Assembly: GCA_016929245.1 (NCBI GenBank)
Contig: JAFGJE010000251.1
Span: 1 to 62,062 of the forward strand
DNA: 62,062 bases
Source: Phycisphaerae bacterium
GTDB taxonomy: Bacteria > Planctomycetota > Phycisphaerae > SM23-33
Direction of reading: 5' to 3'
Part shown: positions 2,464 to 58,182 of the stretch, in pieces
Layout of the letters: each line of letters opens with the position of its first letter
Position numbering within the stretch: position 1 is the first letter of the stretch
The notes under the pieces: generated by a model
What the model saw: only the letters and a program-made list of their open reading frames with translations
Told to the model about the DNA's origin: nothing
The model's database searches: none
Program-made: the position numbers and the translations under genes

Positions 2464-2489
2464 CGCGGCGGGAATCCTTTCCCGCCGCG
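2464..2489. repeat. Perfect 11-bp hairpin (REP-like or terminator-like)
   Basis: CGCGGCGGGAA-TCCT-TTCCCGCCGCG between co-directional genes, with no U-tract. Confidence 0.6.
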
Positions 2490-2507
2490 TCGAGACGTGA
2501 GCATACG

Positions 2508-3650
2508 ATGACGTTACGAAACACGATCATTTCGGCGATGGTAATCGCGGCGCTGGCTTGTTGGCCGGCGGTGCACTGGCCCGCGCCGTCATCGGCGACG
2601 GCGGCGACGCCTTCGCGCGTCCTGCCGAAGATGGTCACCCGCGACACTGCCACGCGCGTCGACAAGGGGCTGCGCTACCTCGAACGCACCCAGCGACAGG
2701 ACGGCAGTTGGCTCAACAGCGGCGGATGGGGAGTCTATCCCGTCGTCATGACGTCGCTGGCGGGACTGGCGTTTCTCGCCAACGGTTCGACGCCGGAATC
2801 CGGGCCGTACCGACGCAGCGTTTCGCGGGCGCTGAACTACGTGCTGAACATCGCGGAGGCGGGTCGGCAGCGGAACAAAAAGGAAATCCTCATCGCCGGG
2901 GAGGGGTCGGAATCCCGCAGCATGTACGGCCATGGGTTCGGGATGCTGTTCCTCGCGGAGTGTTACGGGATGGAGGGCGACAAATCCACCGACCGCGCGC
3001 AGCGCATCCGGGACGTGCTGGAAGGGGCGGTGAACTTAACCGCCCGGGCGCAGTCCGACCTGGGACCCGCGCAGAAGCACGCCGGCGGATGGATTTACAC
3101 CCCCAACGGCCGAAGCGACGAAGGTTCGGTGACCGTCACGCAACTCCAGGCCCTCCGCGCCTGCCGCAACGTCGGGATCAAGGTGCCCCGCAGCACGATC
3201 GAACGGGCCGTGCTGTACCTGAAATTCTGCCAGCAGTCCGACGGGGGGATCTGCTATTCCGCGCAAAGTCGCGGCAACAGCCTGCCGGCGATCTCCGCGG
3301 CGGCGGTGGCGTGTTTTTATTCCGCGGGCATTTACGACACCCGCACCGGCGGCGCCGGCGTCGAGGCGAAGATGGTCGAACGACTCATCGAATACTGCAA
3401 GAAAAACGTCCGCGTCGAAGGCGGCGCGGGACATTACTTTTATACACAACTGTACTATTCCCAGGGAATGTACCAGCGCGGCGGGAAGGACTGGGTGGAC
3501 TATTACCCCCGCATCCGCGACCGCCTCGCGGGCATGCAGGCGCCGGACGGAAATTGGAACGGCGACGGTATCGGCCCGATCTACGGAACCGCCATCGCCT
3601 GCATGATCCTGCAACTACCCTACGGCTACCTGCCGGTGATGCAAAGATAG
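2508..3650 (+). CDS. Prenyltransferase/squalene oxidase repeat-containing secreted protein
   Basis: Signal peptide; QW-like repeats ([32 protein letters not shown]); located next to a MoxR ATPase. Confidence 0.85.
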
Positions 3651-3673
3651 GCAGGGCGGGGCTACCGCCCCGC
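3651..3673 (+). repeat. GTAG-like REP hairpin (GCAG tag)
   Basis: GCAGG followed by GCGGGGC-TACC-GCCCCGC, directly after the stop codon. Confidence 0.45.
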
Positions 3674-3694
3674 GAAACAATTGGAGATACAACC

Positions 3695-4756
3695 ATGACG
3701 GAAGAACATGACGACATCCAGGCCGCTCGTAAACTCACCGAAGCCTACCGGATGATCCGCGAAGAGATGGCCCGCGCGATCGTCGGGCAGGAAGACGTGC
3801 TGGAACAGCTCTTGACGTGCATTTTCGCGCGAGGCCATGCGATTTTGGAAGGCGTGCCCGGACTCGCCAAGACGCTGATGGTCAGTTCGCTCGCGGAGTG
3901 TCTCGACCTGCAATTCGCCCGCATCCAGTTCACGCCCGACCTGATGCCTTCGGACATCACCGGCACGGAAGTCATCCAGGAAGACCGCGCGACCGGGCAG
4001 CGGGAGTTCAAATTCCTGCGCGGGCCGATCTTCCACAACATCATCCTCGCCGACGAGATCAACCGCACCCCGCCCAAAACGCAGGCCGCCCTGCTGGAGG
4101 CGATGCAGGAGCGGCAGGTGTCCGTCGGCGGCGAGCGCATGCCGATGGCCGACCCGTTCTTCGTGCTGGCGACGCAGAATCCCATCGAGCAGGAAGGCAC
4201 CTATCCGTTACCCGAAGCGCAGCAGGACCGGTTCATGTACAAGATTCTCGTGGACTACCCCGGCTGGGACGACGAATTTGACGTGATCCGCCGCACGACG
4301 GCCGGCGAACCGCCCAAATTGAATCGCGTGCTGAGCGGCGAAGAAATCCTGCGACTCCAGCAGATCATCCGCCGCGTGCCGGCAGCCGACCACGTGATCC
4401 AGTACGCGATGAAACTCGTGCGCGCCACGCGCGTCGGACCGCCGGCGGGTGAAGCGAACCAGGCGCCGGAAATCGTGCGGGATTACATCTCCTGGGGCGC
4501 CGGCCCGCGGGCGTGTCAGTACCTGATCCTCGGCGGAAAAGTCCGCGCCGTACTGCACGGCCGTTTCCACGTCAGCACCGAAGACGTGCAAGCCGTCGCC
4601 AAACCCGTGCTGCGCCACCGTATCGTAACCAACTTCAACGCCGACGCCGACGGAATGTCTCCCGATGCGATCATCGACAAACTCGTGGAGATCACCCCCG
4701 CCAAAGAATCCCCCATCGCCACCAATCCCGCCACCAGCGGCGCGGTGGAGGAGTAA
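3695..4756 (+). CDS. moxR: MoxR-family AAA+ ATPase
   Basis: Walker [21 protein letters not shown], Walker [26 protein letters not shown]. Start is ATG 3695 after GGAG; the track's extension to 2558 is a shadow frame. Confidence 0.95.
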
Positions 4757-4758
4757 AA

Positions 4759-4792
4759 GAATTGCGGATTGCGGGTTGTGGATTGCGGAATG
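4759..4792 (+). repeat. Heptamer tandem array, family C (GATTGCG)n, copy C1
   Basis: GAATTGCGGATTGCGGGTTGTGGATTGCGGAATG just after the moxR stop. Confidence 0.75.
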
Positions 4793-4808
4793 AAGAAAAA
4801 AGATACAT

Positions 4809-56815: not shown

Positions 56816-56865
56816 GGAAGGCGGCGGGGAGCGGGAATCGGCAGCGGGAAGAAAGAATGAAAGCG

Positions 56866-56919
56866 AACACCGCCAAACGGCAAGGGGATTTTCGTGTCGG
56901 CTAGCCGTTTGGCGGCGTT
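56866..56919. repeat. 16-bp inverted repeat between convergent genes (REP-like or bidirectional terminator)
   Basis: AACACCGCCAAACGGC ... GCCGTTTGGCGGCGTT (15/16 match). Confidence 0.6.
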
Positions 56920-56978
56920 ATGAAAAATACGATTCGGACCTGTTCCTAAGGCCTGTCCCGCCAGGCGAATTGTAAGGG

Positions 56979-57587
56979 TCAATTTCTTTTCCGTCGTCGC
57001 AACGCCAATGCGCCGAATCCCAGCAGCGTCAGCGTCGTCGGTTCGGGAGTCGCGCCGGCTTTGATGGGAGTATCTACTTCCGTTTCATACGCATAGCCGG
57101 ATATGAACAGCTTATTGGCGTTTCTATCGTATTGGGCCGCGATCCAGCCGTAATGCGTTTGGCTGTCCAGTTTGAAACTGACGCCAAGATAATAAAGGGA
57201 ACCATTCTCCCAGTCACCTATGGGATCATCGTTATGCACGACAACCAGATTCTTTGTTCCTCCACCTCCGCTAAGATCGCCGGGAATGTCGTCATCGAAA
57301 TCATACGCCGTCGCATAAAACCCACCGGCGACCCATGGGCTGTAAGAGCTTTCGGTGTTGGTGACGATCGTAAAATGATCGTCGTTATCGTAAAAATCAT
57401 ATTTCATGTTGAACTGTCGTTCTTCTTCAGCCAGGAATTTGATTTCGAGATTGTTGTTTTCCGACCAGACGGCGGTGTCCGTAATGTCGGTGTATTGGAT
57501 TTTGGCTTCGGCGGAATTTCCGCTTCCTAAAAGCAAAGCCGTCACGAGCAGACACGATACATACAGCGATACTCTGTGGTGGAACAT
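56979..57587 (-). CDS. PEP-CTERM sorting domain protein
   Basis: AGGAGG ribosome-binding site, signal peptide, C-terminal TPEPTTLTLLGFGALALRRRKRN. Confidence 0.9.
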   Translation of the reverse strand: MFHHRVSLYVSCLLVTALLLGSGNSAEAKIQYTDITDTAVWSENNNLEIKFLAEEERQFNMKYDFYDNDDHFTIVTNTESSYSPWVAGGFYATAYDFDDDIPGDLSGGGGTKNLVVVHNDDPIGDWENGSLYYLGVSFKLDSQTHYGWIAAQYDRNANKLFISGYAYETEVDTPIKAGATPEPTTLTLLGFGALALRRRKRN

Positions 57588-57687
57588 GGTTTGTCCTCCT
57601 CTTGTCCTTTCCTCTAAAAAATGAGCCTCATGAGCCATTCACAAACGAGTCATTCGTGAAATAGTGTATAGAAGAAAAAGGGATTTG

Positions 57688-57903
57688 TCAAGAAGCGACG
57701 CGATGTTCTCCCGTCATCATTTGGTAGGAAAACTCATTGACATCGGTCTGCTGCGCGGCGTGTTCCACTGTCATGCTGACGACGTGGTTATCCTTATCCA
57801 CTTCCACGAGGACGTTTTCATTGAGATCGAACGTTTCGACGATTTCATTCCGGCTGAATGTCAGCAGCAAGGTGTCGGTATCCGGAAAATATTTCGCCTG
57901 CAT
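57688..57903 (-). CDS. DUF2283 domain protein (putative antitoxin)
   Basis: MQAKYFPDTDTLLLTF...ETFDLNENVLVEVDKDNHVVSMTVEHA. Confidence 0.85.
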   Translation of the reverse strand: MQAKYFPDTDTLLLTFSRNEIVETFDLNENVLVEVDKDNHVVSMTVEHAAQQTDVNEFSYQMMTGEHRVAS

Positions 57904-57968
57904 GATCTTTACTCCCGAAATCGTCTGGAAAAAAACGTGATACTTTTTTCAATCTGACCAATTTCCTG

Positions 57969-58182
57969 GTCCCGAAGGGACTGAAAGCATTTAGCCGGGG
58001 ATGAAGCGAAGCGAGTCCCCGGAATGCTTTTGTATCGGAGTCCCAACGGGACGACAGCAAACCAGAAACTTCATTCAGTATAACCGGATTGCTGTCGCCC
58101 CGTTGGGGCTCGAATCAATATAAATATCTCCGGGGGTTCGCTTCGCTCACCCCCGGCTAAACGCTCATCAGCCCTTTCGGGC
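57969..58182. repeat. Nested REPIN-like element (family K)
   Basis: Outer arms 57969-58023 and 58129-58182 (CCCGAAGGG..TTTAGCCGGGG..GCGAAGCG..CCCCGGA); inner arms 58038-58060 GAGTCCCAACGGGACGACAGCAA and 58089-58111 TTGCTGTCGCCCCGTTGGGGCTC. Confidence 0.85.

Follow-up and report, generated by a model that had tools for sequence, protein, structure and literature searches.

The contig JAFGJE010000251.1 of a Phycisphaerae bacterium (assembly GCA_016929245.1), analysed here as a single stretch of 62,062 nt (hereafter the window; ~60% GC), carries several housekeeping operons (PQQ-propeller/MoxR/DUF58/BatA; queG with folE; nadE; rnfBAEGDC; gatB) and many short repeats in its intergenic gaps. The proteins most similar to those of the window likewise bear the label Phycisphaerae. 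Two of the repeat families, A and B, each bracket a small nuclease gene, as the initial annotation of this DNA had stated: the arms of family A enclose a GIY-YIG gene (PF01541) and those of family B a GxxExxY gene (PF13366; Table 1). The same annotation had reported that the window contains neither a RAYT nor an insertion sequence (IS) transposase, and a Pfam search of the 51 window open reading frames (ORFs) likewise detected no Y1 or IS transposase.

Repeats are found in 19 of the 29 intergenic gaps of at least 40 nt, as ~37 copies that together cover ~1.6 kb out of 4.3 kb of intergenic sequence. Copy counts refer to the window, and the comparisons across genomes to 160 fetched loci (80 GIY-YIG loci and the GxxExxY set). 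The families that had been named from the sequence are present in the places where they had been described and exceed chance expectation: family A (TGTCATCCTGAG) has 10 matches at no more than 1 mismatch (0.12 expected), family G has 8 matches distributed over 5 arms (0.02 expected), and family D has 5 matches, with 3 full copies (0.77 expected). The family C 10-mer by itself is barely above chance; the two 45-nt units of this family (pair I14) are 84% complementary. Strict phased arrays, defined as at least three units of a 6-mer with a spacing of 7-11 nt, number 8 in the window, compared with 0.22 expected from Markov simulations. The excess observed for families A, D and G and for the phased arrays rules out that these repeats are chance low-complexity sequence.

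The units of family A are 45-58 nt long and are arranged as three doublets, two single copies and one pair around the GIY-YIG gene. In the doublets of the window the conserved end is outermost, in agreement with the initial annotation, and the same orientation is preferred around GIY-YIG genes elsewhere (see below). Folding of a single A or B unit is no better than that of shuffled sequences (z -0.05 and -0.5, respectively), whereas doublets fold at z -10 to -17, which indicates that the palindrome is the doublet and not the unit.

Table 1. Repeat elements and nuclease genes of the window, with positions and strands.
Feature	Position	Strand	Remarks
Family C array (GGATTGCG-type units, period ~7)	4759..4790	+	Immediately 3' of the MoxR stop codon; same position in L170 and L169
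Family A arm A1, TGTCAT-tagged long variant, left arm of ssnA cassette	4809..4866	+	Orthologous arm in L164 and L170
ssnA-like gene, 97-aa single-domain GIY-YIG nuclease	4896..5189	+	PF01541, 1e-18; 46% identity to N. gonorrhoeae SsnA
Family A arm A2, right arm of ssnA cassette	5184..5232	-	Overlaps the stop codon; orthologous to arm 2 of L164 and L170
Gene-less family A doublet	5243..5419		A3 (+) 5243-5296, spacer ~70 nt, A4 (-) 5366-5419; orthologous L164 doublet contains ssnA
GxxExxY gene, PD-(D/E)XK nuclease fold	6406..6876	+	PF13366, 1e-39; TIGR04256, 1e-40
Family B left arm, TTTGAC cap + 3 CACAGAG units	6415..6444	+	Translated as N-terminal extension of the GxxExxY ORF
Family B right arm	6883..6912	-	Complementary to left arm (inverted pair I16)
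Family C 45-nt unit	14376..14420	+	Inverted partner of 18027-18071 (pair I14)
Family D doublet (CGTGGTT...AACCACGGCGCC hairpin units)	16697..16790	.	DNA fold z -8.4
Family C 45-nt unit	18027..18071	-	Partner of 14376-14420
Family A single copy	19349..19402	-	46 nt 100% identical to copy at 34583-34628 (pair I5)
Family A gene-less doublet, 10-nt loop	20510..20603	.	DNA fold -51.7 kcal/mol, z -17.5
Family A gene-less doublet	25658..25758	.	
Family A single copy	34586..34629	+	Single-unit fold z -0.05, no better than shuffles
Gene-less family B doublet	35455..35565		Arrays 35455-35483 (+) and 35535-35565 (-); encloses ATTTCAA-type AT-rich palindrome 35483-35526; DNA fold z -15.7
Family B arm and decayed partner	40826..40895		Arm 40826-40852 (+); decayed partner 40876-40895 (TTCTCTGAGTTCTCTGAG)
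Two similar GC hairpins ('49452 doublet')	49455..49537		Second hairpin 49510-49537, minus, intrinsic terminator behind rnfB
Family C array	49558..49585	-	Adjoins the rnfB stop
Family D single hairpin, then family G arm	51345..51441		Hairpin 51345-51387 (fold z -2.1); G arm 51402-51441 (minus); between rnfA and rnfE
Family G doublet (GAGAACGCG cap + ACGAATAAG units)	53865..53960	.	Between rnfD and rnfC; DNA fold z -10.6
Family H, CACGGATTA x4 array + weaker inverted partner	55399..55480	.	Upstream of rnfC
Family G doublet, 53-nt spacer	55904..56056	.	Pair I11
Composite palindrome, ~210 nt, 3 GC hairpins per arm	57966..58186	.	

The GxxExxY cassette and its heptamer arms

The structural model of the GxxExxY protein (pLDDT 86) has Cas4 SSO0001 and lambda exonuclease as its nearest folds, and residues D100, E110 and K112 are nearly or fully invariant. 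The GC content at third codon positions (GC3) of the gene is 0.29, compared with 0.77-0.79 in the neighbouring genes. The start codon of the ORF is the ATG within the terminal ATGA of the DUF58 gene (window 6403-6409), and the reading frame continues through the left arm, giving KKFDHRDTEGTEE, an arrangement also present in L002, L003, L169 and L170 (L numbers designate fetched loci); residues 1-37 are modelled with low confidence. The ATGA overlap suggests that translation of the two genes may be coupled.

Flanking inverted repeats with a score of at least 14 were detected in 45 of the 70 usable metagenome loci of the GxxExxY sample (64%), compared with 3 of 107 neighbouring genes (3%) and none of 292 shifted controls. 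The arms are short phased arrays, with three units in 67 of 73 and a spacing of 9 nt in 72% and 8 nt in 22%; their heptamers fall into several classes (CACAGAG, ACAGGAT, CCAGGAA and GCCGAG, among others). On the GxxExxY protein tree the arm class changes only 5 times, compared with a mean of 23 changes after shuffling, and none of 200 and none of 500 shuffles gave a value as low. The left and right arms of a cassette also match each other better than arms of the same class taken from different cassettes (median 14 versus 9, p = 4e-6).

Array density is 1.45 per kb within 200 nt of the GxxExxY gene, 0.19 elsewhere in the same loci and 0.05 in GIY-YIG loci. Within 200 nt of the gene, 76 arrays were found for GxxExxY and one for GIY-YIG, whereas the tagged hairpins described below were found 193 times for GIY-YIG and 4 times for GxxExxY. 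The two repeat classes are reciprocally specific to their own nuclease.

The GxxExxY gene is co-oriented with both neighbours in 30 of 36 loci (53% in the background) and never antisense to both. The same build is present in named genomes, between radA and a FAD gene in Bacteroides finegoldii, between fabD and fabG in Sphingomonas parapaucimobilis (with CGCGAAG units) and between ade and manC in Bernardetia. Some near-identical cassettes occupy differing contexts and their homology ends at the arms; other cassettes are syntenic. The nuclease genes have a lower GC content than the rest of their locus in 80 of 80 GIY-YIG loci and for 52 of 54 GxxExxY genes (loci L004-L163), even at long-occupied sites. 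Among 72,556 plasmid records only 8 contain GxxExxY, and no GxxExxY gene was found in viral contigs.

The possibility that the cassettes lie within 23S rRNA genes was rejected: no rRNA motif was detected in the 160 loci and no Rfam match in the window. In one GxxExxY clade the layout consists of an array (+), the GxxExxY gene, a second array (+), a variable ORF and a third array (-) (L096 4541-5593; L132 4444-5184; L139 3237-3947; L158 2054-2818; L137 4417-5649; L138 4538-5818). The variable ORFs encode DUF5677 proteins (PF18928, E 4e-12 to 5e-4), a SIR2-like protein (PADLOC, 2e-6) or unknown proteins of 410-426 aa, so that the same arrays also mark the limits of adjacent cassettes whose cargo is defence-like.

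In the sediment metagenome containing the window, the summed contig depth is 600-4300 at the A and B arms and 8-18 for the unique sequence of the organism, which points to a very high abundance of both repeat types in the whole community. Many contigs of this metagenome consist of a left arm, 8-34 nt and a right arm. Metagenome contigs break at the arms, and the arm joints found are other copies with flanks of less than 30 nt.

A literature search, judged by the titles or abstracts of the papers listed, retrieved no paper on GxxExxY with three-heptamer arms. The initial annotation had assigned both nuclease genes to a poorly described class; this fails for the GIY-YIG half, already published as the Ssn/SRM system together with a comparison to RAYT. 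As an association, the GxxExxY half is well supported, and an action of the nuclease on the arms is predicted by analogy.

Family A and the ssnA-like gene

SsnA is a 94-aa single-domain GIY-YIG protein of Neisseria which binds a tagged hairpin (CGTCATTCCCGCG...CGGGAATC), cleaves adjacent single-stranded DNA and modulates transformation (Chenal et al., 2025, Nat Commun 16:2388, PMC11893778). Cleavage of single-stranded DNA, and not of duplex DNA or RNA, was obtained in vitro with four Neisseria and Wolbachia proteins, and the motif lies near the gene in 71% of Ssn homologues (selected by tblastn with E < 1e-10) and on both sides in 42% (PMC11893778). The authors themselves drew the comparison with IS200/RAYT and REP elements (PMC11893778).

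The GIY-YIG domain is the only domain of the window protein, which aligns with gonococcal SsnA at E 2e-24 (pairwise BLASTP; E 8e-15 by tblastn to N. gonorrhoeae). Residues of catalytic type (Y7/Y9, Y20-x-G22, R29/R30, E55/E67 and N86) are invariant or nearly so in 30 relatives. The window gene is bracketed by arms A1 and A2 with the TGTCAT tag outermost, and the gonococcal ssnA gene (94 aa) has canonical NTS hairpins all round. TGTC followed by AT is present in 10 of 10 family A copies, and all three gene-less A doublets are head-to-head. A family A unit consists of the tag, a closing stem of 4-5 bp and an interior of 24-35 nt. Judged by sequence, family A and the 97-aa GIY-YIG gene are a member of the published Ssn/SRM system with a long-loop hairpin variant.

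Comparison with 80 related GIY-YIG loci from more than 15 phyla supports this assignment. A [C/T]GTCAT-tagged hairpin lies within 200 nt of the gene in 63 of the 80 loci. Close to the gene these hairpins reach a density of 6 per kb, compared with 0.33 per kb over the remainder of these loci and ~0.09 per kb in loci unrelated to them. The outermost position of the tag is favoured (72:32 upstream, 57:32 downstream). Flanking inverted repeats that reach the score used for GxxExxY were found in 32 of the 80 loci, compared with 3 of 280 neighbouring genes. For both enzymes, nuclease genes are thus found between arms far beyond chance, as the initial annotation supposed. The congruence between nuclease and repeat that it also proposed to test is observed, with arm type following the protein tree; for GIY-YIG the clustering is moderate (26 changes of hairpin stem type versus 39 after shuffling) and each type is present in many phyla.

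A gene from a Planktothrix plasmid with 59% identity to the window ssnA carries the same long-loop hairpin type. In Planktothrix agardhii plasmid p1 (L181, 1-1476), an ssnA homologue and several tandem TGTCATTCTGAG tags are flanked by a type IIL MmeI-like restriction-modification gene on one side and by drmA, the DISARM helicase gene, on the other, i.e., they lie in a defence island. The spacers of the gene-less A doublets were also considered as decayed ssnA genes, and this was not retained: in local alignments 48-138 of 500 shuffles align as well, and we claim no direction of gain or loss. The GIY-YIG half is therefore already known, and the window adds to it a member with a variant hairpin.

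The MoxR-DUF58-BatA operon in relatives and the remaining families

The two cassettes of the window occupy neighbouring spacers of the MoxR-DUF58-BatA operon, which we compared in 12 related genomes reached via DUF58 homologues. Between DUF58 and BatA, the cassette interrupts a spacer of 14-21 nt, at a distance of 5 nt from both the DUF58 stop codon and the BatA start codon. The full GxxExxY cassette is present in the window and in L001, L002, L003, L169 and L170; the gene is truncated between intact arms in L173 and L174; L175 has a gene-less B doublet; and L164 retains a remnant of the B right arm beside a family C doublet. The junction is clean and tight in L165, L167 and L171. The L164 remnant (CTGTGCCTTTGTGGTCAAA) is identical to the window copy at 35545-35563. 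On the DUF58 tree, states derived from family B are found in every major branch and empty sites are scattered, a pattern that corresponds either to an old insertion followed by at least three clean losses or to repeated insertion at one site.

The divergence of GxxExxY parallels that of DUF58 (dS 0.67 versus 0.65 to L003; dN 0.27 versus 0.26 to L169), and its dN/dS of 0.10-0.17 corresponds to purifying selection. This co-divergence and the low dN/dS suggest that GxxExxY is functional and mostly vertically inherited. At this site the gene keeps a GC3 of 0.29-0.47, with a host GC3 of 0.77.

The content of the spacer between MoxR and DUF58 also varies. The window has a C array, an A doublet containing ssnA and an A doublet with a spacer; L164 has an A doublet with a spacer followed by one containing ssnA; L170 has a C array and an A doublet with a spacer; and L169 has a C array only. 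In L173, L174 and L175 the junction is occupied by an IS200/IS605 Y1 transposase gene flanked by GC hairpins, and in L167 it is reduced to 3 nt. The orthology of the arms in the window and L164 implies that ssnA is located in doublet 1 in the window and in the second doublet of L164; L170 has it in neither. On the REP_Tyr_transpos model (cut-off 80), the Y1 genes of L173 and L175 reach 18-20 bits; on the IS200 model (cut-off 55), the L173 gene scores below the cut-off (48 bits) and the L175 gene above it (67 bits). The presence of a Y1 transposase in the junction of ssnA is in keeping with a single niche shared by these elements. After MoxR, the family C array is kept in relatives down to 67% DUF58 identity. 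Altogether, the operon series displays gene turnover within persisting arms and the replacement of one family by another.

That ssnA was acquired independently in the window and in L164 was considered from dS (3.2 by NG86, versus 0.64 for DUF58) and not used, the nucleotide identities being similar (81% versus 83.5%). The Y1 transposase of L175 is followed by five 27-nt units in tandem (GAGGAATGCCGGCTCGCAAYATCGCGT; L175 810-945) and then, at 1000-1030, by GATTAACG heptamer units that resemble family H of the window.

The initial annotation regarded all families as unrelated, which is not the case: B, C, G and H are built alike, and A belongs to the tagged-hairpin type. At the level of sequence, the build of family B recurs in family G, in which ACGAATAAG units carry a GAGAACGCG cap, and in family H (CACGGATTA). 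Family C (GGATTGCG) repeats every 7 nt and, in L164, occurs as a doublet without a gene. Family D is a true hairpin unit (z -2.1) without known partner. The '49452 doublet', listed as a further family, does consist of two similar GC hairpins, of which the second is an ordinary intrinsic terminator. In the rnfBAEGDC operon (window 49583-55332, minus strand), repeats lie in or beside four spacers (D and G, a TATTG array, a G doublet, and H upstream of rnfC), and the spacers of the MoxR-DUF58-BatA operon of the window are likewise occupied by repeats.

The composite palindrome shares only short modules with the hairpins flanking the Y1 genes of L173 and L175 (a 14-nt exact match with E 0.001 and weaker ones), which is a weak match. 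It adjoins a low-GC island (window 57664-59100, GC 0.49) with ORFs of 97 aa (57664-57957, plus) and 289 aa (58210-59079, minus); no Pfam or PADLOC match was obtained for either ORF, nor an NCBIfam match for the 289-aa ORF, the one searched against that database. Two further repeats are coding repeats, unrelated to the intergenic families: tandem GAnGAnGAn repeats (window 39431-39633) correspond to an acidic D/E-rich stretch of ORF 39069-39704, and repeats with a period of ~354 nt (27480-29466) lie within the gene of a 1282-aa calpain-like protein.

Related systems and the origin of the repeat-nuclease association

Family A resembles the Ssn/SRM system in its single-domain GIY-YIG protein of ~95 aa, in its oriented inverted repeats with the [C/T]GTCAT tag outermost and in its many gene-less intergenic copies, mostly as head-to-head pairs. 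It differs from it in units with a closing stem of 4-5 bp and an interior of ~24-35 nt, which have no solo fold and are missed by the published SRM pattern, and in its host, a Phycisphaerae metagenome-assembled genome; cleavage by the window variant is predicted by analogy. The CGTC/TGTC-tagged superfamily of REPs is also close, with TGTC plus AT, predominant head-to-head dimers, no transposase and a presence in Planctomycetes, but the described families have stems of 8-9 bp, loops of 4-5 nt and a CCA tail, whereas the units of the window are longer, with a weak fold (Di Nocera, De Gregorio and Rocco, 2013, PMC3733652).

Both families recall REP/REPIN elements and their RAYT enzymes (Nunvar, 2010, PMC2817692; Bertels and Rainey, 2011, PMC3116915; Di Nocera, 2013, PMC3733652), in which one enzyme gene lies between inverted short repeats and vertical persistence is long; in relatives of the window, a Y1 transposase with hairpins occupies the same junction. 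In REP/REPIN systems the repeat is far commoner without the gene, mostly as intergenic inverted doublets, and for A and B such an excess is seen within the window and in the contig depth of the metagenome. However, the window enzymes are hydrolytic nucleases (GIY-YIG and PD-(D/E)XK) and not HUH/Y1 transposases, the repeats lack the GTAG tag (A has TGTC), single A and B units do not fold, the B arms are phased tandem heptamers, and, by their scores, the Y1 genes in relatives go with IS200/IS605 and not with RAYT.

A structural parallel to the family B cassette is provided by ORF-bearing intervening sequences (IVSs) of 23S rRNA in Coxiella and Leptospira. In Coxiella, three tandem heptamers precede a small ORF and the 28-bp stem is cut by RNase III (Warrier et al., 2016, PMC4990558). 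Both are inserts of ~450-500 nt in a transcribed region, with a terminal stem of ~28 bp, three tandem heptamers and gene decay in some lineages. The family B cassette differs in lying between the protein cistrons DUF58 and BatA instead of in helix 25 or 45, and its ORF encodes a PF13366/TIGR04256 alpha/beta nuclease fold under purifying selection instead of an S23p four-helix-bundle; by analogy, RNase III is predicted to cut its stem. Unlike IS elements or miniature inverted-repeat transposable elements, the cassettes contain no transposase, and no target-site duplication was seen around them. The STRR heptamers of heterocystous cyanobacteria, reportedly described by Mazel and colleagues in 1990, are said to be tandem, intergenic, present as several families per genome and of unknown function; they form longer tandem runs and not three-unit inverted arms around a gene, and we know of no link between them and GxxExxY.

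Taken together, these comparisons lead us to regard it as probable that the window contains separate partnerships between a repeat and an enzyme, established in short spacers between co-transcribed genes, plus some ordinary terminators. Family A would represent long-loop TGTCAT-tagged Ssn-related motifs (SRMs), with an SsnA homologue within one A doublet. Family B would form the arms of a cassette of ~500 bp, in which a sense-oriented PD-(D/E)XK gene lies between inverted arms of three heptamers each with a 9-nt spacing, and G, H and C (with its 7-nt period) would be gene-less elements of the same build. The inverted doublet would be the lasting unit and the nuclease gene a cargo in its loop, which could be lost, truncated or replaced over evolution as the arms persist, with gene-less doublets outnumbering gene-bearing ones. 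Each nuclease would recognise its own repeat, as shown for Ssn relatives, GxxExxY presumably reading the phased heptamers. Pairing of the family B arms may produce a stem of ~28 bp in the operon transcript, to be cut by RNase III as in the 23S rRNA IVSs. New copies would be rare and most copies vertically inherited.

A more specific version of these partnerships is possible, and we put it forward with considerable doubt. GxxExxY could be the sequence-specific partner of the three-heptamer arms with 9-nt phasing, forming a minimal bacterial class of nuclease plus repeat comparable to Ssn/SRM and RAYT/REP. Intercistronic spacers would be contested between all these systems and IS200-type elements, with each of them persisting there for long periods, losing and regaining genes and replacing the others. 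Families C, G and H could have further partners, whether other GxxExxY clades or four-helix-bundle genes, and be the orphan arms of these.

Several observations weigh against such partnerships. To our knowledge, there is no biochemistry for any GxxExxY protein, and no relative with a solved structure was found by sequence. The congruence between arms and protein clades could partly reflect host phylogeny, the metagenome loci carrying no taxonomy. Co-divergence under purifying selection fits a host-useful resident as well as a selfish gene. Comparison of filled and empty junctions revealed no target-site duplication, i.e., no direct repeat outside the arms, at either junction of the operon. No partner gene for C, D, G or H was found in the window or the fetched loci, nor any for period-7 arrays in the fetched loci. 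For family A, the published degenerate SRM pattern HGTCWYN(0-2)YYVSBRHN(0-5)WNVSBRGN(0-2)RNCYNB matches no site in the window and lies within 200 nt of the gene in only one of the 80 loci, because the interior of the units is too long; since single A units do not fold, cognate recognition of the long-loop variant is an extrapolation from the published system.

Could the nucleases instead mobilise the repeats in the manner of RAYTs? The initial annotation had each nuclease maintain its own gene-less repeats; in its literal form, each enzyme would excise and reinsert, or copy, gene-less doublets and thereby create and sustain their abundance. Such a process would account for the excess of gene-less copies over genes in the window (a ratio of 9:1 for A and, counting doublets, of at least 2:1 for B), for the identity of two single A copies located 15 kb apart, for the clean empty junctions of L165, L167 and L171 within a clade that carries B and for homology confined to the cassette in differing contexts, and the same idea has been raised for Ssn (PMC11893778). 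Nothing in our data shows it, however. GIY-YIG and PD-(D/E)XK hydrolases form no covalent intermediate and have no known strand transfer, the compared junctions contain no target duplication, and GxxExxY has co-diverged with its operon, persisting vertically at one site under purifying selection. We consider RAYT-like mobilisation unlikely.

Homing, or gene conversion, starts from the assumption that the doublets pre-exist as host or independent repeats: a selfish nuclease gene would cut empty doublets and be copied into them by recombinational repair via the homology of the arms. The location of ssnA in alternative orthologous doublets in the window and L164, and its absence from the same doublet in L170, are what this process would produce, and the constant position of the gene in the loop between intact arms, the low GC of the nuclease genes and the spread of each hairpin type over many phyla are in line with it. 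Yet the relatives of SsnA cut only single-stranded and not duplex DNA, unlike classical homing enzymes (PMC11893778), the spacers of gene-less doublets contain no significant ssnA remnant, GxxExxY appears vertically inherited at this site, and arm type tracks protein clade, so that the arms are not independent of the gene. Homing is improbable as the origin of the pattern.

Least likely of all, the arrays and hairpins would act in cis on operon transcripts (as RNase III sites, stabilisers, insulators or terminators, for example) and the nucleases would act in a host process, e.g., the control of incoming single-stranded DNA, and lie near these sites for regulation only: repeats in nearly every Rnf and Bat operon spacer, the conservation of the C array after MoxR, the co-oriented, ATGA-coupled GxxExxY gene under purifying selection, the modulation of Neisseria transformation by SsnA (PMC11893778) and the cutting of IVS stems by RNase III (PMC4990558) can be read in this sense, but the patchy distribution among close relatives, clean empty junctions included, argues against an essential cis role, and both the decay series with one family replacing another at the same site and the arm-bounded homology in unrelated contexts also count against this reading.

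For the Ssn system, these data indicate that the published SRM pattern overlooks the long-loop hairpins of the clade nearest to the window gene. The operon series, with its filled, truncated, gene-less, replaced and empty states and an IS200-type transposase in the slot of ssnA, provides material on element turnover. GxxExxY (PF13366) is a very large family without known function, for which a fixed DNA design matched to its clades offers a concrete candidate substrate. If the nuclease reads its own arms, the principle of a small enzyme with its own dispersed repeat would extend beyond RAYT and Ssn, and it would account for many of the heptamer arrays in bacterial intergenic DNA.

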